64,000 bases of DNA from Myxococcales bacterium. GTDB taxonomy: Bacteria; Myxococcota_A; Bradymonadia; Bradymonadales; Bradymonadaceae. Position numbers and translations under genes: made by a program. This document shows, piece by piece, positions 41,996 through 54,679 of the stretch. Every line of letters starts with the position of its first letter. Within the stretch, counting starts at the first letter, position 1. Below the pieces are notes generated by a model. That model saw only the letters and a program-made list of their open reading frames with translations. It did not search any database and was not told where the DNA came from. The stretch is taken from NCBI GenBank assembly GCA_007135085.1, contig SLJM01000154.1:293-64292 (forward strand). The letters are read 5' to 3'.

Positions 41996-42157
41996 AATCA
42001 CCTAAAAGTCTACCGCCCATGAGCGCCGACGCTTGCGCCAGACGTGGACTTTCGCTAAGTGAAGGGGACTGTGATCGCGTCATTCGCACAGATTGGGTCC
42101 GCTACACATGGTGCGGATCTTGACTCCCCCCCGATTCCCATGCCGAGTAAGAGGCAC

Positions 42158-44128
42158 ATGCTGAACACCGAACCCCAAACTTTCGACGACTTCTATCTCA
42201 GCGATGAGATGCGTCGCGCCCTCCATTCTGTTGAATATACCCAACCCACTCCGGTCCAGGGCAAGGCGATTCCCCTGATCCTGGCCGGAATCGACCTGAC
42301 CCTTCAATCTCCGACGGGTTCGGGAAAGACCGCGGCGTTTGCGATTCCCATCATCGAGATGCTCGAGCCACGTCCGGGGCGAATTGACGTACTGGTCATG
42401 ACGCCCACCCGGGAGTTGGCCAAGCAGGTCTGCAAAGAATTCGAGGGATTGGGTCAATTCAAAGATCTCAAGGCCACCGCCATTTACGGCGGCACCTCCT
42501 ACGAGCGTCAATATGAAGCGCTGGAGACGGCCTCCATCGTCGTCGCCACGCCGGGCCGGCTTCTGGATCTATGCGAGAAAAAGCGCCTCGACCTGAGCCA
42601 ACTGCGGGTGCTCGTCCTCGACGAGGCCGACGAAATGCTGTCCATGGGCTTTCGCGACGATATCGAAGCGGTCATGGCCTACCTGCCCGAAGAGCGGCAG
42701 AGCATTTTATGCTCGGCGACGATCACCAACGAGATCAAAGCCCTGGCCAACAGCATCTTGTTCTACCCGGAGTTCGTCACCCTCTCGAGCGACTCCGTGG
42801 CTGCCCTGGACGTGACCCACTATTACTACAGCGTCGACGGCGTGGGCCGCCCCAGAGATCTTCTCAAGGTGCTGGAATATGAAGAGCCCGACAGCGCTCT
42901 GATCTTTGCCAACACCAAACGGGAGACCTTCTCGGTCACCACTTTTTTGAAGCGCCACGGCTATCGGGCGGACGTGCTCAACGGCGATCTTCCCCAGAAA
43001 GAGCGGGAGAAGACCCTGCGAGCCCTGCGCGATGGCAAGATCGATTATATCGTGGCCACCGACGTAGCAGCTCGAGGCATCGACATCTCCGACCTGAGCC
43101 ACGTGCTCAACTACAGCCTTCCCGACTCGGCCGAGGTCTATATCCACCGCACGGGCCGAACCGGTCGCGCGGGCAAAAAGGGCAAGGCAATAAGCCTTAT
43201 CGCCCCCACCGAAGTGGACACGTTCTTCCAGATCAAAAAGATGTACGACGTTAAATTGGAAGAGCGAGCCCTTCCCACCACACGAGAAATCATGACCGCT
43301 CGCCAGCAGCGCTCCCTCATTAAATTGAACGAAGATCTCGATTCTCTGGAGGGCATCCCCTACGGCGCCCATCTCAAGGTGGCGGAACAACTCCTGATGG
43401 GAGCCCCCGAGATCGACGAACATATCAACCGCGCCACCCTGGCCGCTCGCCTGTTGGCGCTGGCCGACAGCGTCGTCTCCGGTGAATTCCAACGCCCCGC
43501 AAACGGCCGCGGCCCGGCCACGGTCGCCCAGAAGGCTGCGCCCGCAGAAAGGAAAGCCCCTCAAAAAGAGGAGCCCGTCGAGAAGAGAGAAGAGGCGATC
43601 AAAACAGAAGAAGTGGTCGTCGAAAAAGAAGAAAAGAAAGAGCGAGCCCCGGCCAAAGCCAGTGCGCGCAGCCGGAAATCCCGTGATGACCGAGACCGGC
43701 GCAAGTCCACCTCAGACGATGAGGAACGAAGCAGTCGACGACGACGGCGACGGCGTGGCCGGACCTCGGACAGCGATAATGGCGGCGCTCGTGCTGCCAC
43801 CAGCCCCGAGCCATCCTCCCCTGATATTAAAGGACAAGACGAAGATATGGATCAGATCACCCCCGTTGCCCCCGCCATCGACAGCCCCTCGTCGACGCGC
43901 AAGATGTATATGAATATCGGCCGAAATGCCTTCGAATCTGCCAAAGATCTCATCGACATGGTATGCTATATGTCGGGCATGGACCCGGAAGACTTCGGCA
44001 AGGTCAACGTGGAAAGCTCCTACTCCTTCGTCCATGTCCGGGAAGATTATTTCAGCGACGTCATCGCCGCCCTCCACGGGCAGGAGTGGGAAGGCAATAA
44101 GATCACAGCCGAACCGGCGCGCAAATAA
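42158..44128 (+). CDS. DEAD-box ATP-dependent RNA helicase with a K/E/R-rich linker and DbpA-type C-terminal RNA-binding domain
   Basis: Q motif TPVQ, PTGSGKT, VLDEADEML, SAT, HRTGRTGRAGKKG, and C-terminal KMYMNIGRNAF...ITAEPARK. AAGAGG RBS before ATG 42158; ATG 42140 is an alternative start. Confidence 0.9.
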   Translation: MLNTEPQTFDDFYLSDEMRRALHSVEYTQPTPVQGKAIPLILAGIDLTLQSPTGSGKTAAFAIPIIEMLEPRPGRIDVLVMTPTRELAKQVCKEFEGLGQFKDLKATAIYGGTSYERQYEALETASIVVATPGRLLDLCEKKRLDLSQLRVLVLDEADEMLSMGFRDDIEAVMAYLPEERQSILCSATITNEIKALANSILFYPEFVTLSSDSVAALDVTHYYYSVDGVGRPRDLLKVLEYEEPDSALIFANTKRETFSVTTFLKRHGYRADVLNGDLPQKEREKTLRALRDGKIDYIVATDVAARGIDISDLSHVLNYSLPDSAEVYIHRTGRTGRAGKKGKAISLIAPTEVDTFFQIKKMYDVKLEERALPTTREIMTARQQRSLIKLNEDLDSLEGIPYGAHLKVAEQLLMGAPEIDEHINRATLAARLLALADSVVSGEFQRPANGRGPATVAQKAAPAERKAPQKEEPVEKREEAIKTEEVVVEKEEKKERAPAKASARSRKSRDDRDRRKSTSDDEERSSRRRRRRRGRTSDSDNGGARAATSPEPSSPDIKGQDEDMDQITPVAPAIDSPSSTRKMYMNIGRNAFESAKDLIDMVCYMSGMDPEDFGKVNVESSYSFVHVREDYFSDVIAALHGQEWEGNKITAEPARK

Positions 44129-44708: not shown

Positions 44709-44767
44709 GCCCATACCTCAGATCTGGAATCTCCCCAGTTTAAACCACCTCTAGATTGATCTTCGCT

Positions 44768-44810
44768 CCGCAACGCCCATTTTAGTGATGGGCGTTGCGG
44801 ATTATTTTTT
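44768..44810 (+). terminator. rho-independent terminator between convergent genes
   Basis: Perfect 13-bp stem CCGCAACGCCCAT-tttagtg-ATGGGCGTTGCGG followed by ATTATTTTTT. The U-tract overlaps the stop of the convergent methyltransferase gene. Confidence 0.7.
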
Positions 44811-46772
44811 CTTGGGGGCCTGCTTACGGGCGCGTTTTTCGGCGAGGATGATGATTCGCGGGCTCGATGCTCCCAGGAAGTATCCCTTGTGATGGCGAGC
44901 ACCACTGACCTCGAGAACCTTGAACCCGGCGACGTGAAGCATCTGACGAAGTTCGTGAACGTTGTAGAGCCGGATATAACTGGTGTGCTCCATCGGCGGG
45001 CTGCCGTCTTCGTAGATATAGGAGCGCTGAGCCTGAAGGGTGCTGGTCTGATAATCGAACTCGCTCTCCTCCAAAAAGATGCATCCTTTCCCCTCCCACC
45101 ACAGACGGGTCGGCGTCTGGCGCACCACATAATCGCGGTTGACGACATCCACCAACAGACGTCCCCCGGTTTTCAGGGATCGATGGATGCCCTTGAGCAC
45201 ACGCAGATTGGTCCGATCATCAAAATATCCAAGAGAGGTGTCCCAGACGAAGCACCCATCAAACATGCCCGAGAATTTGAGATCCCGCATATCGCCGCGG
45301 ATGAACTTGACGTTCAAAGATCGGTTTGTCGCTTCTTCGAGGGCGCGCTCCAGAAGGGGACGCGACAGGTCGAGGCCGACCATTTCGTAGCCCCGCTCAC
45401 ATAATTCGACGGAATGACGGCCGAATCCGCAGGCCAGATCGAGAATCCGAGACTTCTTTTTGAGCTTTAAGCTCGCCTCAATAAAGTCGGCATCCTTACT
45501 GGTGATCGATGCAATATTGGATGGAACCGTGCGTAGATACTCTTTACTGAAGACCTTCTCAAACCACACATCCTGCGGTCTGACGGGCCGCTTTTTCTGC
45601 TGTTTCTTTTTCTTCTGCTCTCGCTCCTCCTCGAGGAGTTCCTCCACCAGCCCTCGCATATCGTCATCACCGGCACCGGCGCCGGCGGCTCTGGCCGGTT
45701 CTGGTTCTTTTTTCTTCTCTTTTGGGGCTTGTTCTGGCCTGGCAGGCTCTTCAGACTTGGGCGGCAGGTCGGCTGGCGGTGCAGGTTTCTCCGGCGGAGC
45801 CGGCTTGGCTGGCCCCTTCGGTTCGACGTCTTCATCGTCGAGCTCGATGAGCTCCTCGTCGAGTTCGACCGATTCGTATTCCTCATCCTCTTCGTCGGCC
45901 TCCAGCAGCTCTTCGTCGATCTCGATCTTGCTGGTCACAGGCCCCATGGCCGGGGTTTCGGGCATGGTCTCCGGCATGGAGGCGCTTTTGTCTTCCGATT
46001 TGGCGTCGATGGCCACCGCCTCCAGGGCCGCATCGTCGAGCTCCATCGGCTCTTCCGAATCCTCGGCGATCGACTCCGGTACTTCTTCATCGCCCGCCGA
46101 GGGAGCCTCATCCTGCGGCCGAGATGGCGGGGGTCCCTCGCTGGTCGGTGTGTTCGCAGCGCTCGGTTCCCCGACGATGCGTTCGACGCTGCCCGGCAAC
46201 CCCTCGCGCCATTTCTTGACCAGCACCCGAGGCTGGCAGGCGACAATCTCGGGGGCAAATCGGGCGTCACCTAATATGGGAAGTTCATCCTCTTCGTCTT
46301 CGCTGCCCAGCGCCTCGATAGCCTCCCGATCGAAGGCGTCCATCTGGATGGTCTTGACCATGGACTGCCGATCGTATCCCTGCTCCCCGCCGTCTTCATC
46401 TTCGCTGTCGAGGGGCTCCTCGTCGTCGACCATTTCTTCATCGCCCCCTGCTGTCTCGACTTCTTCGACCGCCCCATCTTGGGATTGACCATCCACGGCC
46501 GCCGCTTCCTCGAGAGCTTCCTTGGAGAGACGTTGAGTCGTCGGCTCTTCGTCGGCAGGCTCTTCGGCGGTCCCATCGTGTTGCTCGGGCACCTTGAACT
46601 CCGGCATCTCGAGCCCCATGCCCTCCAGGGTTTCTCCTTCGTCTGACTCGTGAGCACTATGCTCACTGTCGACGGTCCTTACTTCTTCGGTCAACTCAAT
46701 GACGTCACTCTCTTCTTCGAGCGCAGTCACTCCAGGCGGGGTGTTATCAGCTGATTCTGCCACGAGATTCAA
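44802..46772 (-). CDS. class I SAM-dependent methyltransferase with a ~400-aa poly-acidic disordered N-terminal region
   Basis: The C-terminal ~250 aa carry motif I ILDLACGFGRHSVELCERGYEMVGLDLS and post-I/II elements. The N-terminus is dominated by D/E/P/A low-complexity sequence. Confidence 0.75.
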   Translation of the reverse strand: MNLVAESADNTPPGVTALEEESDVIELTEEVRTVDSEHSAHESDEGETLEGMGLEMPEFKVPEQHDGTAEEPADEEPTTQRLSKEALEEAAAVDGQSQDGAVEEVETAGGDEEMVDDEEPLDSEDEDGGEQGYDRQSMVKTIQMDAFDREAIEALGSEDEEDELPILGDARFAPEIVACQPRVLVKKWREGLPGSVERIVGEPSAANTPTSEGPPPSRPQDEAPSAGDEEVPESIAEDSEEPMELDDAALEAVAIDAKSEDKSASMPETMPETPAMGPVTSKIEIDEELLEADEEDEEYESVELDEELIELDDEDVEPKGPAKPAPPEKPAPPADLPPKSEEPARPEQAPKEKKKEPEPARAAGAGAGDDDMRGLVEELLEEEREQKKKKQQKKRPVRPQDVWFEKVFSKEYLRTVPSNIASITSKDADFIEASLKLKKKSRILDLACGFGRHSVELCERGYEMVGLDLSRPLLERALEEATNRSLNVKFIRGDMRDLKFSGMFDGCFVWDTSLGYFDDRTNLRVLKGIHRSLKTGGRLLVDVVNRDYVVRQTPTRLWWEGKGCIFLEESEFDYQTSTLQAQRSYIYEDGSPPMEHTSYIRLYNVHELRQMLHVAGFKVLEVSGARHHKGYFLGASSPRIIILAEKRARKQAPKKK

Positions 46773-47045: not shown

Positions 47046-48002
47046 TCAGTTCAGGGGTGAGCGCGAGAGACGCTCGGCCAGGCTGGTGTAGGCGGCGCTG
47101 ATCTGGTCGTCCGTCATTTGCTGGAGGCGCTCAAGAACCCGTTGCCTGGCCTCGGCCGCTCCCGCCAGATGCAGGCTCTTTTCGATTTCTGTGCGAAGTG
47201 AAGCCGGCACCTCCCCATAGAGCTCGACCAGATTGGCGATGATCCGACTCTGCCCTTTGGCTCCTGTCTTTGCCCGCGGCGCTAGGTCCGAGGTCTGCCA
47301 GGCCCATTGATTAGCCCAATCACCAAGGGAGCGAATGGCCAGTCGTCGCAACTCGAGATCATCGCCGTCGACCGCCACTTCGAGCAAATATTCCAGGGCC
47401 GTCGAGCGCCGCGCCTGCCCCAGGCCGGCCACGATTGATTGGCGCTTCTGCTCCTCGTCACGGGCCAGCTCAATCGCAGTTTCGATGGCTGCCACATCAC
47501 CGGTTCGCCCCAGAGCCGATGTAGCGGTTTGATGGGTCGCTCCCAGCGGATCCGGTCCTTCCAGAATCGAGATCAGCACGGGGATGCTGCGCTCATCGCG
47601 ATGCCGTCCCACCGCTTCCAACAGCCCTACTCGCCAGGTCACCCAACCGCGCAATCCCATCTGCTCGGCGAAGGGATCGTCTGCCACCAATGCCCATAAC
47701 ATGGGCAGCAGCCCCTCATCACCGAGCCCCTTCAAAACGCGGGCGGGGCTCATCTCCCGTTGAGCGCCAGCGGTCTCCCAGTCGCGCACCAGCTGGCGCA
47801 CCGCGTCGAGACGGGCAAATATGCGGGGATCGTCACGCCACAACTCGTGGAGATCGTCGGCGATCGCCTCCAACTCCGGATGGGCACCGAAGTCGGGTGC
47901 CTTCGCCCCCTGCTGGGCCCATGCCGAAGAAACCAGCAAAAATGAGCCCACCACAAGAGCAATCAAAAATAGGGAAAGCCGCCATCGCATTACGCTCATC
48001 AT
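47046..48002 (-). CDS. secreted HEAT (PBS-lyase type) repeat protein
   Basis: Signal peptide MMSVMRWRLSLFLIALVVGSFLLVSSAWAQQ. Repeats of the type ...ALGRTGDVAAIETAIELARDEE... and ...RRLAIRSLGDWAN. AAGGAG RBS. Its ATG overlaps the upstream stop (ATGA at 47999-48002). Confidence 0.6.
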   Translation of the reverse strand: MMSVMRWRLSLFLIALVVGSFLLVSSAWAQQGAKAPDFGAHPELEAIADDLHELWRDDPRIFARLDAVRQLVRDWETAGAQREMSPARVLKGLGDEGLLPMLWALVADDPFAEQMGLRGWVTWRVGLLEAVGRHRDERSIPVLISILEGPDPLGATHQTATSALGRTGDVAAIETAIELARDEEQKRQSIVAGLGQARRSTALEYLLEVAVDGDDLELRRLAIRSLGDWANQWAWQTSDLAPRAKTGAKGQSRIIANLVELYGEVPASLRTEIEKSLHLAGAAEARQRVLERLQQMTDDQISAAYTSLAERLSRSPLN

Positions 48003-50059
48003 TGTCCCAGCTCCTTTTCCCACCAGGGTGTGGCCGGCAGTTGTCTTCTCGTATTCGATCCGCAATGCACCTGGCCCACACCGACGTGATAGGGCTCCCA
48101 GGTCTCGATCCAATGCACGTCAATTCCCAGCGGATTGAGAAGTCCTTCCACGTCGTCGATGAAGACATCCCGGCCATCGACGCGGGGGCCGTGGGGATCG
48201 GGAGCACCGAAGACATTGGGGCCGAGGCTGATTCCGTTGATGATCCCCGGCTGGTAGGCCAGGCTTCCTCGCCCGGAATCTTCATGAAGAAAGGCGATCG
48301 GCACCAGATCTGCTTCGGTCAAACCGATCTCACTCTTCAGCACGTCCACCTGAGCATCGACCTCCACTGCAGCTCGCGCAGAAGCGGCCATGATATCCTC
48401 GTCGTCCAGAACCTCGGAGACCGTCCGTTGCGCCGGCGTCGGTGGCGGGCAATCCCACCCTCCCCCGGTCCAGACACAATCGTCATAGTTGGGATAATAG
48501 CGATCGTCGAAGAGGGTGGCCCCCCCTTCGCCGAGATCGTCACGCAGATGCTCGAGGATCTCTTTTGCCCGCAGCGGATCGTTATATAAAAGCGACCAAC
48601 CCCGATCGGTATCGGTCTCGACGAAACTGACGGTCTCATCGACGTGGGCTACCAATAGCCATGCCGTATCGAGCCAGATCAGCGGTTGTTTTTGTTGGGC
48701 GTCGATCAGATTCGACAGCGTCGGATCGGGGCGCACGTTGGGGTCTTGCCCGCGTCCCCGATAGACCCGTCCCAGTGGATAGGTCGCTCCATCGGGAGCG
48801 GTATGAGGAGGAGTGGTCTCCGTATTACCGAAGGAATCCAACGTATCCGAATCGAAGACCCGATTCACCAATTGGGCCACCTCCGGGTATTCATGCTGAC
48901 TATTCATCCCATATAGGTAGGAGACCACGTCGTCCACATCGAGGCCTTCCGTATCGACTGGATCAAAGCCCTTGTCCGGATCATAGACGGCCATGGCCGC
49001 CATACTGGGCCCGTGGAATTGGGAGTAAATCACACGCCCCGCCTCACGCAACAACGGCGGAAGCGATTCCCCCTGGACCTGGTAGAGTCGCTCGAAGACC
49101 TCTTCCAATGAGCCGGGATAGCTGAGGTTCGCGCTGCGAAAGCTCAAGGCAATCACCCGCGGTCCATCTGGCGCCGGCATGGCCATATAACCAGTGAGCA
49201 GATAATCCTGGATCCAGGGATCGAAGGTATTGAATAATTCCAGGCCCCCCTCGACGCCGGCAGCATCGGTGGTGGCCTGCAGATCGTCGACGAACTCCTG
49301 GTTTCGACTTCCCAGATCGACGGCGTAGACCGCGCTGGCCTCAAATAAGTGGTGGGGAAATAATACGGGCGCCACGTCCATATGGGCCCGGTCGCTGACG
49401 GTGCGGTCCAATTCGGGGATATGAATCTCCCAGGTCAGCTCCACCCTTCCATCCCACTCCTCGCGATCGAGGACTACCGACAGGCCTTCGATGCCAAATT
49501 CCACCCCTTTCTCAAGGAGCTCGGCTTCCACCCTATCTTCGTCGGGATCGAAAGGAACGAAGCCGTCCACTCCCTTATCGTCGCCGTTGTTAATATAGAG
49601 GCGAACCTTGTCACGGGAAGCCTCGTCGACGCGCAATACGCCAAAGGTATTGGGCCCCACCCTGCCGGAGGGAGCGGTCTTGATGCGCCCCAGATCGGCC
49701 AGATCTGCTTGATTGCTGAGGCCTGGCTCGGCGGCGTCAAAACATGCCTCCAGCTCGGCGTCCGCCCCCAAGGGCGGACAGGCCTGGCCGTCATCATCGA
49801 GATTGGCCAAAAATAAAGCGCCATAACCGGGCTCCGGATCATGGCGCTGTGTCAGGTCGACCGGATCGTCGAGGTCGACGATCCCATCGCGACTGGCATC
49901 GACGACGACCAGAGTCGTCGGCGTGGGATCATAGAATTCACCATCGTCGCCCAGATAGAAGATGGGATCGTCATAATCGACGAGATCCACCTCCCCGCTG
50001 CAGGCAAAGGCAGTGGCCACCAATGCCGCCAGGGCGACCAGATTGGTTCTTTTCCTCAC
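47999..50059 (-). CDS. exported (lipoprotein-signal) protein-arginine deiminase, eukaryote/cyanobacterial PAD family
   Basis: Motifs PWIQDYLLTGY, DSFGNTETTPP...YPLGRV and AHVDETVSF, plus C-terminal GQVHCGSNTRR with the Cys codon at 48062-48064. The likely start is GTG 50059, preceded by a GGAGA RBS. It gives VRKRTNLVALAALVATAFAC (lipobox AFAC). The ORF-track ATG at 50134 is an alternative start. Confidence 0.8.
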   Translation of the reverse strand: MRKRTNLVALAALVATAFACSGEVDLVDYDDPIFYLGDDGEFYDPTPTTLVVVDASRDGIVDLDDPVDLTQRHDPEPGYGALFLANLDDDGQACPPLGADAELEACFDAAEPGLSNQADLADLGRIKTAPSGRVGPNTFGVLRVDEASRDKVRLYINNGDDKGVDGFVPFDPDEDRVEAELLEKGVEFGIEGLSVVLDREEWDGRVELTWEIHIPELDRTVSDRAHMDVAPVLFPHHLFEASAVYAVDLGSRNQEFVDDLQATTDAAGVEGGLELFNTFDPWIQDYLLTGYMAMPAPDGPRVIALSFRSANLSYPGSLEEVFERLYQVQGESLPPLLREAGRVIYSQFHGPSMAAMAVYDPDKGFDPVDTEGLDVDDVVSYLYGMNSQHEYPEVAQLVNRVFDSDTLDSFGNTETTPPHTAPDGATYPLGRVYRGRGQDPNVRPDPTLSNLIDAQQKQPLIWLDTAWLLVAHVDETVSFVETDTDRGWSLLYNDPLRAKEILEHLRDDLGEGGATLFDDRYYPNYDDCVWTGGGWDCPPPTPAQRTVSEVLDDEDIMAASARAAVEVDAQVDVLKSEIGLTEADLVPIAFLHEDSGRGSLAYQPGIINGISLGPNVFGAPDPHGPRVDGRDVFIDDVEGLLNPLGIDVHWIETWEPYHVGVGQVHCGSNTRRQLPATPWWEKELGQ

Positions 50060-50130
50060 GGATTCTCCGTAGAAACAAGCATCAGAATGGCATCGAAACA
50101 TCAAGAGCCTAATCAGCGCCTTTCGGCCTG

Positions 50131-50982
50131 TCAAACACGTCCCAGCTCCTCTCCCATCTGTAAGAGCTCTCCCCCAATGAGCCCCTGCCCAAATGCAAAC
50201 TCCCCTGATTCCACCAGCACGATCACCGTCGACCCAAGGTTAAAAACAGCCAGCTCGTCGCCCTGTGAGAACTCAAACTCCTGCTCTGGACGAAACTCTC
50301 GTCGCCGGCGAAAACCGCTGTTCGTACTCAGCGCAGCAAAACTCAGCGAAATGCGGCCCACGCAGGTGGCGCCCACCTTGATGACGGCCACACGGCCCAG
50401 CTGCGGCGACTCCAGATAGGTGATGAGCCGCTCGTTGACCGCGAAGAGCTCGTCGATATTTTCCACGGCGAAGGGATTGACCGGAAAGAGGTGCCCCGGG
50501 ATATAGCTGATCTTGTCCACCCTGCCCTGCACGGGGCAATGGATACGATGGTAGTCCCGAGGTGATAGATAGATCGTGGCGTAGCTTCCGCCACGGAAGT
50601 GTTGCTCTTCTTCGGCGCTGTCCACCAGATCCAGGAGGCGATAGTCTCGGCCCTTGGCCTGAAAGAGGGTCCCCTCTTCGATGGCACCGAAAGCCCCGAG
50701 ACGTCCGTCGACGGGGCTAACGGCCACCTGGGGTTCCTGGGCCTCCACGGTGCGCGCTCCCTGTCGCAAACGCCGTGTAAAAAAGGCGTTGAGGCTCTCA
50801 TACTCCTGGAGAGGCTTTTCGGCCTCCTGGGCATCGACCCCTGAAAAATGAACAAACGACCGGTTGACCACCTGTTGTACCGGCGAGGGAAATTCCACCT
50901 CGCTGATCACACCGAAGGCTCGGCTGATGGCATTTTTAGGCAATCGCTTCAATAGGCCGACGGCGAGATCGGACTTCTTCAT
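50131..50982 (-). CDS. psd: phosphatidylserine decarboxylase proenzyme
   Basis: Self-cleavage motif FNLGSTVIVL, core YATIYLSPRDYHRIHCP, GAGGAG RBS before ATG 50982. Confidence 0.9.
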   Translation of the reverse strand: MKKSDLAVGLLKRLPKNAISRAFGVISEVEFPSPVQQVVNRSFVHFSGVDAQEAEKPLQEYESLNAFFTRRLRQGARTVEAQEPQVAVSPVDGRLGAFGAIEEGTLFQAKGRDYRLLDLVDSAEEEQHFRGGSYATIYLSPRDYHRIHCPVQGRVDKISYIPGHLFPVNPFAVENIDELFAVNERLITYLESPQLGRVAVIKVGATCVGRISLSFAALSTNSGFRRRREFRPEQEFEFSQGDELAVFNLGSTVIVLVESGEFAFGQGLIGGELLQMGEELGRV

Positions 50983-51180
50983 TAGACGCTCCTCTACAGC
51001 TTGCCTTCTGATTTCGTGTAGCCTGAAGAGATTCGGGCCCTTATTGGCCTGGCCCCACAGGGGGCTTATCATTGACCGAAGCACCGGGGATTCGTCAACG
51101 TCGGGAATCCACCTCCCCTATTCCGGTGTTTAAGTTTTTTGTATGAGTCGTCACTGATTGTCCTCACATCGGAGCCCGCT

Positions 51181-51486: not shown

Positions 51487-53151
51487 ATGACGCGTTATTT
51501 CGGTATCCATACCCTGGAAGGAGAGTGGCATAGCCTCCTTCCGCGCTACGCATTACTTTCAGACCGAATCGAATCCAAGCAGATATTGGATATCGGCTGT
51601 GGCTCCGGGATCGGCTCCTCACTGCTGCTGGAGTTGGGCGCCCAGCGGGTCAACGCCATCGATCATCGTCCGGAAGTCCTGGAGCTGGCCCGAGTCAAAC
51701 ACGCCAAACAAGGGCTGGATTTCCACGTCATGTTCTGGGAGGAGCTCGATTTCCCAGACGACTCCTTCGACATGGTCCTATGCCTCGATCCCTCCTCACC
51801 GGTCACCGATCCCTCATTGCTGCGAGAGATCAAGCGAGTCCTTCGACCGGGCGGCGAATATGTCTGCGCCATCGAACGACGCAACGTCGAGGGCATGGAG
51901 AGCCTGCTGCCCCGTTATGGATATTCCAGCGCCGGTGAAGATCTGGAGCTGACCGGCACCGGGGAGAGAGTGCCCCAGCTCGGCGAATTGGAGCAACTCT
52001 TCGAGACCATCGTCTCCGTGGTCCAACGGCCCCGCTATAGCTTCGTCTTCGATTATGCCCCTGAAGACGAGGCGATGCATACCATGCGCCGAAGCTCGGC
52101 CAGCGCCGACGAAAGCGGCCTCTGGGTCGGTGAAAACCCCCATCCCGAAGACGGTTCGGCAGAGCAGACCGACAATCGCCCGGGCCGGTGGATAAGCATC
52201 GATCGGCGGCTGACGGCTAAAGAAGGAGAGTCTGCGGCTGTGGAACTGCTCTTCTGCGGTGACGAACATATGCCGCCGCCGACCCTTCGAGAGATCCAGA
52301 TGCCCTACCGGGGCCTTGTCGATCGGCTCCACCAGCTCTTCTCAGATCTACAACTTCGCCAACACCCCGATCAGCGCGGGTGGGCCTCTGAGGACGACGG
52401 CACGAACAATCAATTTATGGAGCGCGAGAGAACCTCGGAATTCCGCTCCCCACCGCTGGCTCAAGGATCGGGACAGCGCCGTGAGGGACCGGCTCGCACC
52501 TCCCTTCATTATCGCACCGGCGGGGTGAGCACCCACGTGGAGCCCGCCCCCAGCGGCGAATGGCATCACGTGCGAGAGCAGCTCGACCGCATGACCCGGC
52601 TCTACGAGGAAGTGCGCACTCAGATGGAAGATCTCTTCGTCCACACCCGCCAGGAGATCGAACAGCGCGATCGCTATATCGAGCAGCTCGTCGACACGGT
52701 CCATCATCAACGCCATCAGTCAGCCCCCGTCGACGAGACCACCGCCGGAGATGACGAGGCGCCGGCCGATCCCTTCGAACGGACCAAGACCAATATTTAC
52801 CGCCGTGAGGATGTGGCCACAGCGTTGAACTCCAGCACCGACCAGCCGCTACAGGAAGAAGAAGAAGAATCGGAGCCGATGACCACGCAATTCGTCGTCG
52901 ACGTCGACGGCTCACTCGACGAGGAATCAGAGCCGAAGACCAAGCGATTCGTCATCGACGACAGCGAGGTGGATCAAAGCGAGGCCGAGGATACAGGGGA
53001 AGAAGAAGACGCCGAGTTCGAAGAAAATGGAGCCGACGACGGGATGGCTGAGGAATCGGAGCCTGAATCTGCTCCTGAAGTTGGTGAGGATGTGGAAGCT
53101 GACGACGGCGAAAATGTCGATGAGTCCGAAGTTACTGAAACCACCGAGTAA
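51487..53151 (+). CDS. class I SAM-dependent methyltransferase with a long coiled/acidic C-terminal extension
   Basis: N-terminal motif I ILDIGCGSGIGSSLLLELGAQRVNAIDHRPEVLELA and LRPGGEYV. The C-terminal ~350 aa are low complexity and end in a D/E-rich tail. Confidence 0.7.
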   Translation: MTRYFGIHTLEGEWHSLLPRYALLSDRIESKQILDIGCGSGIGSSLLLELGAQRVNAIDHRPEVLELARVKHAKQGLDFHVMFWEELDFPDDSFDMVLCLDPSSPVTDPSLLREIKRVLRPGGEYVCAIERRNVEGMESLLPRYGYSSAGEDLELTGTGERVPQLGELEQLFETIVSVVQRPRYSFVFDYAPEDEAMHTMRRSSASADESGLWVGENPHPEDGSAEQTDNRPGRWISIDRRLTAKEGESAAVELLFCGDEHMPPPTLREIQMPYRGLVDRLHQLFSDLQLRQHPDQRGWASEDDGTNNQFMERERTSEFRSPPLAQGSGQRREGPARTSLHYRTGGVSTHVEPAPSGEWHHVREQLDRMTRLYEEVRTQMEDLFVHTRQEIEQRDRYIEQLVDTVHHQRHQSAPVDETTAGDDEAPADPFERTKTNIYRREDVATALNSSTDQPLQEEEEESEPMTTQFVVDVDGSLDEESEPKTKRFVIDDSEVDQSEAEDTGEEEDAEFEENGADDGMAEESEPESAPEVGEDVEADDGENVDESEVTETTE

Positions 53152-53173
53152 AGATGTGAAGTGCTCTCGACCT

Positions 53174-54679
53174 ATGCTCCCCTCCGTGTGCCGGCGTGCT
53201 GCGCTGTTCTTGTGCACTCTGTCCATGATCGCTGCCTCAGCGATCATATTGAGCGCCGACCAGGCCGCCGCAGCGGGCTTTGAGGTCGGAGAAAACACGC
53301 CCCGCGCCCTGGCCCGCGGTGGTACGGGAGTGGTCAATACGGGCGATTCGTCAGCCCTTTATTTCAACCCTGCCCTTCTGTCGCGTGTCGACGGCGCTCA
53401 GGTATTGTTGAGCAGCAATATCCTCAATCTCGATGTGGAATTTCAACGAGACGACTTCTACGTCGAGCCCGGCGGGGAGCCGGACCGGGTCTTCGAACGG
53501 GCCACCAATCAAACCGGGCTCTTTCCGGCCCCCTTTCTGACGGCGAGCTTCAACATCACCGATGACTTCACCGTGGGAGCCGGACTCTTTGGTCCACCGG
53601 CCTACGGCAATCCCTGCTACGGCCCCATCGAGGACGGGGAATGTCAACTCGACCCCACGGGGGCTACACGAGGAATGGTCATCGAGGCCGATATGATCGT
53701 GGCCTACGGCTCGCTCGGCGCCGGATATGGAATTACTCTGGGCGACGATCGACGACTGGACGTCGGGTTGACCGCCGCCCTGGCCTACCAGCAAACGCAA
53801 TTTGCGGTCGTCGCCGACGCCCAATACCCCATCCAATCCCCCTGGGAGGAAGACCCCCATCACGAGGCCTACTTTCGCGGTGAAGATCTGTCGGGGATGG
53901 CCCCCACGGGGATTGTGGGGCTTGCCTATCAGGACGGACCACTTCGGCTGGCCCTGTCCTATCGGCCTCCGATCAGGTGGCGCACCACCGGGGAGGCAAA
54001 CGTGGAGTTCTCCCAATTTCTTCAGGATATGAACTCCGAGCTCACCGACGACACGATGTATCTCGAGACCTGGCAGGCCGGCTCCCTTCGCTTCGGGTGG
54101 GGCCTTCAGTGGGGCGAACATCCCGCCGATTCGCAACGCCCGCGCTGGGATCTGGAGATCAATACAATCTGGGAAAATTGGTCAGTGGTCGACAATTTCC
54201 AACTCGAATTCGATGGCGATATCTACGTCGACAATATCAACACCGAACTCCCCCTCCACCCGGTCTACCAGCGAAAGGGCTATCAGGACACGATCAGTAT
54301 TCGCACGGGGCTGAGCTATGGAGTCAACTCACGACTTACCGCCCACGGCGGGGCCTTCTTCGAGACCGCCGCCCAACCCGTGGCCTATACGTCGGCGGAC
54401 TTCGTCAGCTGGGAGCGATACTCGGCGAGTCTGGGAACCTCGATATACCTCCCCGCCAATATTACCCTCGATCTGGGCTATGCCTTTATCTATTCTCCTG
54501 ATCGGACCGTGCGAAATGGCCAGGTCTACAATCCGATTCCCATGAGTAACTGCCGAGGACCGGACTATAATGACAGCAGCTGCACCCAGCCTGGCCAACC
54601 CCCTGGCAATCCGCAAAATGAGGGCACCTGGCGTGCCAATTTTCAGATCTTCAGCGCCGGCCTGAGCTGGAATTATTAA
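53174..54679 (+). CDS. second FadL/OmpP1/TodX-family outer-membrane channel (start ATG 53174 or GTG 53156)
   Basis: Signal ...ILSADQAAAAGFEVGENTPRALARGGTGVVNTGDSSALYFNPALLS, beta-barrel strand pattern, C-terminal ...FSAGLSWNY. ORF-track start 53027 overlaps the upstream gene and was trimmed. Confidence 0.7.
   Translation: MLPSVCRRAALFLCTLSMIAASAIILSADQAAAAGFEVGENTPRALARGGTGVVNTGDSSALYFNPALLSRVDGAQVLLSSNILNLDVEFQRDDFYVEPGGEPDRVFERATNQTGLFPAPFLTASFNITDDFTVGAGLFGPPAYGNPCYGPIEDGECQLDPTGATRGMVIEADMIVAYGSLGAGYGITLGDDRRLDVGLTAALAYQQTQFAVVADAQYPIQSPWEEDPHHEAYFRGEDLSGMAPTGIVGLAYQDGPLRLALSYRPPIRWRTTGEANVEFSQFLQDMNSELTDDTMYLETWQAGSLRFGWGLQWGEHPADSQRPRWDLEINTIWENWSVVDNFQLEFDGDIYVDNINTELPLHPVYQRKGYQDTISIRTGLSYGVNSRLTAHGGAFFETAAQPVAYTSADFVSWERYSASLGTSIYLPANITLDLGYAFIYSPDRTVRNGQVYNPIPMSNCRGPDYNDSSCTQPGQPPGNPQNEGTWRANFQIFSAGLSWNY

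Follow-up and report, generated by a model that had tools for sequence, protein, structure and literature searches.

Protein-arginine deiminases (PADs), which turn peptidyl-arginine into citrulline, rank among the main targets for drugs in rheumatoid arthritis, NETosis and cancer. We know of no PAD that has a natural protein dedicated to it as partner or inhibitor. Here, we describe a gene pair in a 64,000-nucleotide stretch of DNA (hereafter the window) from a Bradymonadaceae genome (Myxococcales bacterium, assembly GCA_007135085.1, contig SLJM01000154.1). The pair codes for a PAD with a predicted lipoprotein signal and for a HEAT-repeat protein with a predicted Sec signal (the partner). The two genes overlap by four nucleotides, and the partner gene is found beside the PAD gene across a large Myxococcota/Bradymonadales clade. 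The pair had been pointed out in an earlier note made from the letters of the window.

Two-domain peptidylarginine deiminases (PADIs) have been described in fungi, actinobacteria and proteobacteria, and bacterial PADs in 295 species (Cummings et al. 2021, PMC8826395). Ca sites 2 and 4 are lost in this non-cyanobacterial PADI type (PMC8826395). Another study (Harris et al. 2020, bioRxiv 10.1101/2020.07.16.207027) collected 837 bacterial PADs, called their genomic contexts 'highly diverse' and showed that the lasso peptide citrulassin is citrullinated by a Streptomyces member. The window PAD shares with these enzymes the PF03068 two-domain build and the loss of Ca sites 2 and 4, and the sparse bacterial distribution of such PADs, 'proteobacteria' included, was already on record. 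However, the Streptomyces PAD locus that we compared (L008) has no HEAT gene, whereas here the partner is fixed beside the PAD. Neither a HEAT partner nor a lipoprotein anchor nor a signal peptide came up in term searches of PMC8826395 and bioRxiv 10.1101/2020.07.16.207027, and further full-text literature searches returned nothing on a PAD-HEAT pair or on a PAD effector-immunity system. The earlier note had held that a PAD with a repeat-protein partner was undescribed in bacteria. This stands as far as the partner is concerned, but bacterial PF03068 PADs have already been described. The enzyme family is therefore known, and what is new is the generalised export together with the dedicated partner. 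An exported two-gene arrangement that is fixed in this way seems not to have been described before.

PPAD of Porphyromonas gingivalis is an extracytoplasmic, surface-associated citrullinating enzyme of the same guanidino-group-modifying superfamily. It is Ca-independent, secreted by the type IX secretion system and specific for C-terminal arginine (as cited in bioRxiv 10.1101/2020.07.16.207027). We know of no solenoid partner for it. The window PAD resembles PPAD in being a bacterial citrullinating enzyme predicted to work outside the cytoplasm, and differs from it in its Pfam family, since it has no PF04371 match. The gene arrangement recalls AprA/AprI of Pseudomonas and Inh of Serratia and Erwinia, where an exported hydrolase is followed by a co-operonic periplasmic inhibitor, AprI being a small beta-barrel. 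By analogy, the partner, encoded behind an exported enzyme and bearing a putative signal peptide, could neutralise that enzyme in the periplasm of the producer. Enzyme class and inhibitor fold are however unrelated, and the PAD is a putative lipoprotein and not a type I secretion substrate.

A partner gene is fixed beside the PAD gene

Both open reading frames (ORFs) were found where the earlier note had placed them, and public gene calls contain an identical 686-aa PAD product with the same GTG start at 50059. The PAD stop codon overlaps the partner start codon in an ATGA, as the note had read it, and the AAGGAG ribosome-binding site of the partner lies inside the 3′ end of the PAD gene (Table 1). 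A HEAT_2 gene is also found directly downstream of the PAD homologues at 58, 56, 52, 44, 37, 36 and 27% identity, the flanks being unrelated.

The comparison was extended to a survey of 91 fetched PAD loci, 80 of them added from metagenomes. A hidden Markov model (HMM) built from seven partners was searched against all six-frame ORFs of the PAD loci. The earlier note had named beforehand, as a test able to refute it, the co-conservation of the PAD and HEAT genes. A partner homologue was adjacent to the PAD gene, on the same strand, in 76 of the 91 loci, at PAD identities down to ~27%. Among the 15 loci in which no partner was found, 5 have too little flank to judge. When the partner lies downstream (n = 68), the two genes overlap by 4 nt in 51 loci and by 1 nt in 5 more. 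When it lies upstream (n = 9; L040, L043, L050, L056, L057, L062, L072, L075 and L077), 5 loci have a 4-nt overlap of the PAD start with the partner stop. In a neighbour-joining tree of the PADs, these partner-upstream loci are monophyletic, which fits a single rearrangement that kept the linkage. The start/stop coupling was apparently rebuilt after this rearrangement of the gene order. HEAT-less PADs are mostly Streptomyces-like outgroups in the same tree, L009 and L023 being nested exceptions. The idea that a divergent partner had been overlooked by the HMM was abandoned, as Pfam finds no HEAT in the flanking ORFs of L009, L023, L071, L084, L087, L089 and L091.

All-against-all clustering of the ORFs of 84 loci returned no third recurring neighbour family besides the PAD, the partner and antisense artefacts. 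The best other neighbour, a Ser/Thr kinase, was present in 13 loci; such kinases would be expected to recur by chance if the loci are myxobacterial. A reciprocal search started from the partner showed that partner homologues share contigs with PADs, one of them (P0054) having a PAD directly upstream. Overall, the adjacency, the overlaps, the order swap, the unrelated flanks and the fact that no other families recur are strongly positive evidence that the partner is dedicated to the PAD, with which it is exclusively co-conserved.

The named relatives include metagenome-assembled genomes of Bradymonadales/Bradymonadaceae and of Myxococcaceae, Myxococcales and Polyangiales, as well as Polyangium jinanense, Chondromyces crocatus and the candidate division CSSED10-310. 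With E<=1e-30 as the threshold, a myxobacterial member is matched by no fewer than 699 clusters (90% identity). The pair, with its 4-nt overlap, is present in the complete Chondromyces crocatus genome (CP012159.1) and on a CSSED10-310 contig. Chondromyces crocatus Cm c5 thus offers a cultured host carrying the pair.

In the most divergent HEAT-linked PAD (P0038; L010:5001-7529; 27% identity), PAD_M can be recognised and PKD domains are added at the N-terminus. The partner of this PAD has a greater length (364 aa), and a gap of 13 nt takes the place of the overlap. The linkage may therefore extend past the main clade. A natural HEAT-PAD fusion would have pointed to physical contact of the two proteins, but the candidate met in the representatives search (P0184, 801 aa) was discarded. 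It still carries the lipoprotein signal of the PAD (…LAAAVACGGG…) in the middle of the chain, and probably arose from a partner-upstream locus by read-through or by an error in gene calling.

Table 1. Features of the PAD-partner locus and of its surroundings (window positions)
Feature	Position	Strand	Evidence or remark
PAD gene, two-domain PAD_M+PAD_C type, 686 aa, GTG start	47999..50059	-	PF03068 match, human PAD matches, AlphaFold2 model
GGAGA ribosome-binding site, 5 nt 5′ of the PAD GTG	50064..50068	-	direct sequence reading
PAD lipoprotein-type signal peptide (putative), MRKRTNLVALAALVATAFA, ending in lipobox Cys20 (codon 50002-50000)	50000..50059	-	sequence reading; homologues
PAD_M-like Ig domain, ~aa 50-235	49355..49912	-	aligns with PAD1 residues 141-390 and one vertebrate PAD
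Cys94 and Cys106 codons	49780-49778; 49744-49742	-	within PAD_M-like domain
PAD catalytic domain, aa 236-686	48002..49354	-	invariant catalytic columns; alignment to PAD4
Catalytic codons Asp285; His472; Asp474; Cys666	49207-49205; 48646-48644; 48640-48638; 48064-48062	-	
AAGGAG ribosome-binding site of partner, inside PAD 3′ end	48011..48016	-	direct sequence reading
ATGA overlap, PAD stop TGA (48001-47999) / partner ATG (48002-48000)	47999..48002	-	direct sequence reading
Secreted HEAT-like alpha-solenoid partner (secretion predicted), 318 aa	47046..48002	-	HEAT_2, alphaRep, AlphaFold2 model, family motifs
Partner Sec signal (putative), aa 1-29, cleavage after AWA (…SSAWA, then QQ)	48002-47916	-	sequence reading
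Phosphatidylserine decarboxylase (psd) gene, 71 nt upstream of PAD	50131..51084	-	PF02666 E=8e-59; context only
Acidic low-complexity region and class I S-adenosylmethionine (SAM) methyltransferase gene, 273 nt downstream	44802..46772	-	Methyltransf_25/11/31; context only
Second class I SAM methyltransferase-domain protein	51487-53151	+	brackets psd-PAD-HEAT genes
DEAD-box helicase (DbpA-type in relatives), long Arg/Ser/Asp/Glu-rich C-terminal extension	42059-44128	+	
FadL/Toluene_X-type outer-membrane protein	53027-54679	+	

The PAD keeps the catalytic tetrad in a two-domain build

The window PAD matches PF03068 with 246.5 bits against a cut-off of 25 (E=6.2e-73), a score far beyond chance. 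PF03068 is its sole Pfam match at E<=0.01; neither PF04371 nor PF08526 was matched. The profile search thus agrees with the earlier note, which had assigned the protein to the PF03068 type and not to the Porphyromonas type. The solved structures of human PAD1, PAD2, PAD3 and PAD4 also match the window PAD, with E=6e-39 to 2e-31. The four motifs that had been picked by eye are all present and align with human PAD1/PAD2 as claimed: WIQDYLLTGY with WIQDEMEFGY, DSFGNTETTPP...YPLGRV with DSFGNLDVSPP...YPLGRI, AHVDETVSF with GHVDEFLTF, and GQVHCGSNTRR with GEIHCGTNVRR. The catalytic cysteine codon (Cys666) and the GTG start with its GGAGA ribosome-binding site were likewise read at the positions proposed in the note, the public gene calls using the same start.

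In an alignment of the window PAD with 40 homologues (A1, 41 sequences), D285, H472, D474 and C666 are invariant columns. They align to PAD4 D350, H471, D473 and C645, and are kept in 63/63 or 62/63 further metagenomic PADs. The equivalents of W347, Q349 and E411 (PAD4 numbering) are conserved in the PAD homologues too. An AlphaFold2 model of the window PAD built on A1 reached a mean predicted local confidence (pLDDT) of 93 and a predicted template modelling score (pTM) of 0.89. When this model was searched with Foldseek, the best PDB matches were human PAD4, PAD1, PAD3 and PAD2, with E down to 5e-49 and TM scores of 0.68-0.74, and the best 50 matches were all PAD1-4 or PAD6-containing entries. 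The superposition on PAD4 suggested in the earlier note thus holds for the fold of the model, with TM 0.68-0.74 to PAD4/PAD1, and the catalytic tetrad is intact in the alignments. From sequence and model, the PAD is predicted to be catalytically competent.

The alignment to vertebrate PAD begins at the equivalent of PAD2 D123, residues 1-50 of the window PAD being signal and tether. Therefore, the enzyme consists of PAD_M and PAD_C, without PAD_N. It falls outside the three-domain PADIs (clade Ai of PMC8826395), which are marked by PAD_N and by Ca sites 2 and 4 with the Ca-switch Asp, as it has no PF08526 match and its Ca2 ligands are replaced. The label 'eukaryote-type' used in the note is better replaced by two-domain PAD_M+PAD_C type, since the build is not the three-domain animal/cyanobacterial one. 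As compared to vertebrate PAD1-4 (e.g. 1WDA, 5HP5, 4N2B), the alpha/beta-propeller catalytic domain, the Ig-like middle domain, the tetrad, W347, Q349, E411 and Ca3-5 are common, whereas the window PAD has no PAD_N, has lost Ca2, has Leu at Ca1 E353, and shows an extra Cys94-Cys106 pair and two inserts. Moreover, vertebrate PADs are cytosolic or nuclear, whereas the window PAD is a predicted exported lipoprotein with a co-encoded partner.

The Ca-binding sites, also put forward for checking in the note, are kept in part. The Ca3-5 ligands are N86, D88, D90, D108, D119 and D122 in the window PAD and are kept in 61-63 of 63 sequences. A Ca6-like site is partly retained, in the loop DASRDGIVD of the PAD_M-like domain. 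In contrast, the Ca2 ligands are gone in the window PAD (E351 to Tyr, D369 to Leu) and in all bacterial members sampled. At the Ca1 site, Q349 and E411 are retained, while the residue equivalent to PAD4 E353 is Leu in the window PAD and in 3 others (4/63), and Glu in most of the clade.

Cys94 and Cys106 are kept in 60/63 HEAT-linked and in 5/5 HEAT-less bacterial PADs, and are missing from the one cytosolic vertebrate PAD compared. They probably form a disulfide, which would fit an oxidising compartment. The inserts relative to vertebrate PADs are found at ~aa 319-404 and ~520-540. The second one (window 48476-48502 region, YYPNYDDCVWTGGGWDCPPPTP) holds another Cys pair, C528/C537. Among the 63 HEAT-linked PADs aligned, 62 have a gap at C528 and 30 at C537. 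This insert is possibly an extra disulfide-stapled loop.

Both proteins carry predicted export signals

Export signals were judged from the sequence and from a hydropathy heuristic. The PAD N-terminus, MRKRTNLVALAALVATAFA followed by Cys, shows a charged n-region, a hydrophobic core and the cysteine. Nearly all HEAT-linked PAD homologues have, at this position, a hydrophobic stretch with a Cys behind it. In homologues of the clade, the lipobox-like Cys is followed by G, S, A or D, often with a long Gly/Ser/Ala-rich tether. In the PAD model, residues 20-29 are disordered, as would be expected of a tether. The signal would lead to export of the PAD and to its lipid anchoring via the N-terminal Cys on a flexible tether. 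The partner N-terminus, MMSVMRWRLSLFLIALVVGSFLLVSSAWA followed by QQ, looks like a classical Sec signal, and AxA-type Sec signals are found in nearly all partner orthologues. The lipoprotein and Sec signals proposed in the earlier note are thus both present by the heuristic used, and are conserved across homologues.

Nearly all sampled bacterial PF03068 PADs start with a signal peptide (see the N-termini of P0033-P0037 and P0040). It is of the Sec type in actinobacterial-like PADs and of the lipoprotein type elsewhere. The Streptomyces type of PAD that is implicated in the maturation of citrulassin is no exception, the PAD of Streptomyces sp. HU2014 (P0033; L008:5001-6785, CP097123.1) having an N-terminal signal sequence too. 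Because nearly all sampled bacterial PADs bear export signals together with the probable disulfide, the sequences suggest that the bacterial PF03068 PAD family is ancestrally extracytoplasmic. Such an origin could relate to the high Ca2+ requirement of PADs. An export-adapted ancestry would make the question of the unphysiologically high Ca2+ need of animal PADs directly testable.

The partner is a HEAT-like solenoid of a distinct family

The partner matches HEAT_2 in Pfam with 39.3 bits (cut-off 27.7, E=8e-10), and artificial alphaRep HEAT-like proteins with E=1e-22 over 5 repeat stretches. Together with the predicted AWA cleavage site, these matches agree with the earlier note, which had taken the downstream gene to code for a HEAT/PBS-lyase-repeat protein with a Sec signal. 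The AlphaFold2 model of the partner (pLDDT 92) is an all-helical, 15-helix solenoid. Its Foldseek matches are solenoids of the alphaRep and armadillo kinds and include, at low TM, armadillo designs that were solved with (KR)n peptides bound. The partner thus has the same repeat type and fold as the PBS-lyase HEAT-like proteins (HEAT_2, NblB, alphaRep templates). An identity as NblB/bilin lyase was rejected, the NF045915 score of 28.1 bits standing against an equivalog cut-off of 300 bits. As compared to NblB, the partner has a putative Sec signal, its own motifs, a separate ~310-aa family and no bilin-lyase context.

This distinct family of ~310 aa is large. At E<=1e-30, 287 representatives (50% clustering) match the partner profile, nearly all of them full-length and in one stretch. 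The motifs GLxEAVGxLRDxRAxPVL, AGxGxCRR and SLGxxGNAWAWxT were seen across 57 orthologues. The PADs are acidic throughout (median pI 4.6), whereas most partners are basic and rich in Arg (median pI 9.5, ~10% Arg). We infer that this charge complementarity would fit direct binding of the partner to the PAD.

Possible roles of the partner

We propose that the locus codes for a two-protein citrullination module acting outside the cytoplasm, with the solenoid as a dedicated regulatory subunit. We give this model as a whole somewhat less than an even chance. In this module, the overlap would lead to PAD and partner being co-made, in about equal amounts and for the same compartment. The two proteins would meet in the periplasm and form a 1:1 complex. 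The PAD would act on peptidyl-arginine in proteins or peptides of the envelope, of the matrix or of foreign origin (prey or competitor), turning it into citrulline. In the version that we prefer, the solenoid would bind, restrain or escort the PAD in the Ca2+-rich periplasm until the lipoprotein is at its final site. A regulatory, restraining or escort role is favoured because citrullination is irreversible and because the low-Ca2+ brake on PADs is missing outside the cytoplasm. An inhibitor or escort could be likened to the periplasmic inhibitors that are co-encoded with secreted proteases, such as AprI with AprA.

Several points weigh against this proposal. The likeness to AprA/AprI is one of analogy only, and the binding of PAD and partner is itself something that we infer. 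The partner in the window has an acidic pI (5.1) and differs in this from most of its family. Both signal peptides were called by heuristic judgement. Leu in place of E353 at the Ca1 site of the window subclade may mean that Ca dependence or activity differs there. The nested PADs of L009 and L023 and the distant Streptomyces PADs of L008, L089 and L091 have no adjacent partner, showing that the enzyme can exist without a partner nearby. Finally, should the PAD remain at the periplasmic side of a membrane, there would be little point in an inhibitor that never lets go of it.

Another role for the solenoid would be that of a subunit which recruits substrates or activates the enzyme. Its groove would present an Arg-containing peptide or protein, as in the peptide binding of importin and armadillo proteins or as in scaffold subunits such as PP2A-A, and the PAD-HEAT holoenzyme would be the active form. 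We regard this role as possible, though rather unlikely. The co-conservation and coupling speak for it just as they do for a regulator, the solenoid is a generic peptide-binding scaffold that is matched at low TM by the (KR)n-bound armadillo designs, and a lipid-anchored enzyme with an always co-made soluble subunit suits a holoenzyme more simply than an inhibitor. However, the basic, Arg-rich partners suit the acidic PAD better than they would suit Arg-rich substrates, and the 84 clustered loci show no conserved third gene nearby as a substrate. Moreover, bacterial PADs elsewhere do their work with no partner: a Streptomyces PAD citrullinates citrulassin (bioRxiv 10.1101/2020.07.16.207027), and the Streptomyces locus L008 has no adjacent HEAT gene. 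The order of the genes, usually enzyme then partner and tightly coupled, together with the predicted export of the partner to the compartment that would need protection, is also what an effector-immunity pair would show. The PAD would then be a surface or vesicle toxin, antibacterial or predatory, acting on prey envelope proteins, with the periplasmic partner as immunity protein. The hosts do belong to Bradymonadales, Myxococcota and Chondromyces, which are predatory or social lineages. Citrullination cannot be undone, and outside the cytoplasm Ca2+ sets no limit to it. We nevertheless find this quite improbable. No T6SS (type VI secretion), Rhs, CDI (contact-dependent inhibition) or other delivery genes, and no toxin-delivery domains, recur in the 84 loci, and there was no PADLOC or toxin-family match. 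The pair looks vertically inherited and single-copy, with a coherent clade and Bradymonadales synteny, whereas a patchy distribution and fast evolution are typical of polymorphic toxins. At ~290 aa when mature, the partner is also larger than typical immunity proteins.

That the partner would be the main PAD substrate, with arginines citrullinated in order to mature or switch the solenoid (for instance in the RGR loop or the CRR turn), we hold to be very unlikely. The family has ~10% Arg, with R194/R195 and an RGR-type loop at ~76-78 being conserved (numbering of the 57-sequence family alignment), and the conserved Arg82 of the window partner lies in a 7-residue inter-helix loop of the model. 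But a 1:1 ratio of enzyme to substrate would be wasteful for a catalyst, the window partner has AQR in place of RGR, and Arg richness is common in high-GC genomes. Least credible of all is that the two genes are mere neighbours with unrelated functions, the overlap being incidental operon compaction. Overlaps of 4 nt are indeed common in compact bacterial operons, but the adjacency holds in 76/91 loci at PAD identities down to ~27% and at partner identities to the window protein as low as ~18% (median 25%), the flanks are unrelated and the linkage survives the order swap. The comparative data effectively rule out coincidental adjacency.

A conserved co-translated solenoid partner would open a new way into the regulation of PADs and would offer a natural PAD-binder scaffold. 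AlphaRep-type proteins have already been engineered as binders. The module would also add extracellular citrullination to the protein chemistry of myxobacterial/Bradymonadales envelopes, vesicles or predation. A more far-reaching reading, doubtful when its parts are taken jointly, would make the partner the first natural dedicated regulator of the PAD family (an inhibitor or 'immunity' protein), the lipoprotein PAD an extracellular weapon or remodelling enzyme used by predatory and social bacteria on prey or matrix proteins, and the bacterial PF03068 PADs ancestrally extracytoplasmic. This origin would then explain the puzzling sub-millimolar to millimolar Ca2+ need inherited by the cytosolic animal enzymes.

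Neighbouring genes

Synteny of the psd gene upstream of the PAD gene is restricted to three Bradymonadales relatives, L003, L007 and L092. The two methyltransferase genes that bracket psd-PAD-HEAT (Table 1) are found in the same syntenic arrangement in these loci. Their products carry acidic low-complexity extensions, ~420 aa at the N-terminus for the 44802-46772 product and ~350 aa at the C-terminus for the 51487-53151 product. Behind the pair, a SAM methyltransferase gene is present in four loci (the window, L006, L007 and L010), and it was considered as a third member of the system. It was rejected because BLAST orthologues were found only in syntenic Bradymonadales loci and because it does not recur in the 84-locus clustering. 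The methyltransferases that follow the pair in L006 and L010 are small, unrelated ones. A PADLOC scan returned nothing meaningful for the PAD or the partner; the downstream methyltransferase matched 'mad2' with E=1e-19, which is probably a generic domain match.

Scanning for promoters and terminators inside the operon gave chance-level matches only, and no terminator-like site was seen between the HEAT gene and the methyltransferase gene. Directly after the methyltransferase stop, a perfect 15-bp GC-rich hairpin with T-runs is found at window positions 44767-44801. It is likely the terminator that closes a minus-strand psd-PAD-HEAT-methyltransferase transcription unit. The DEAD-box helicase gene and the FadL/Toluene_X-type outer-membrane protein gene flank the locus on opposite sides, and are syntenic with L003 and L007. 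The presence of this outer-membrane protein points to a diderm host.

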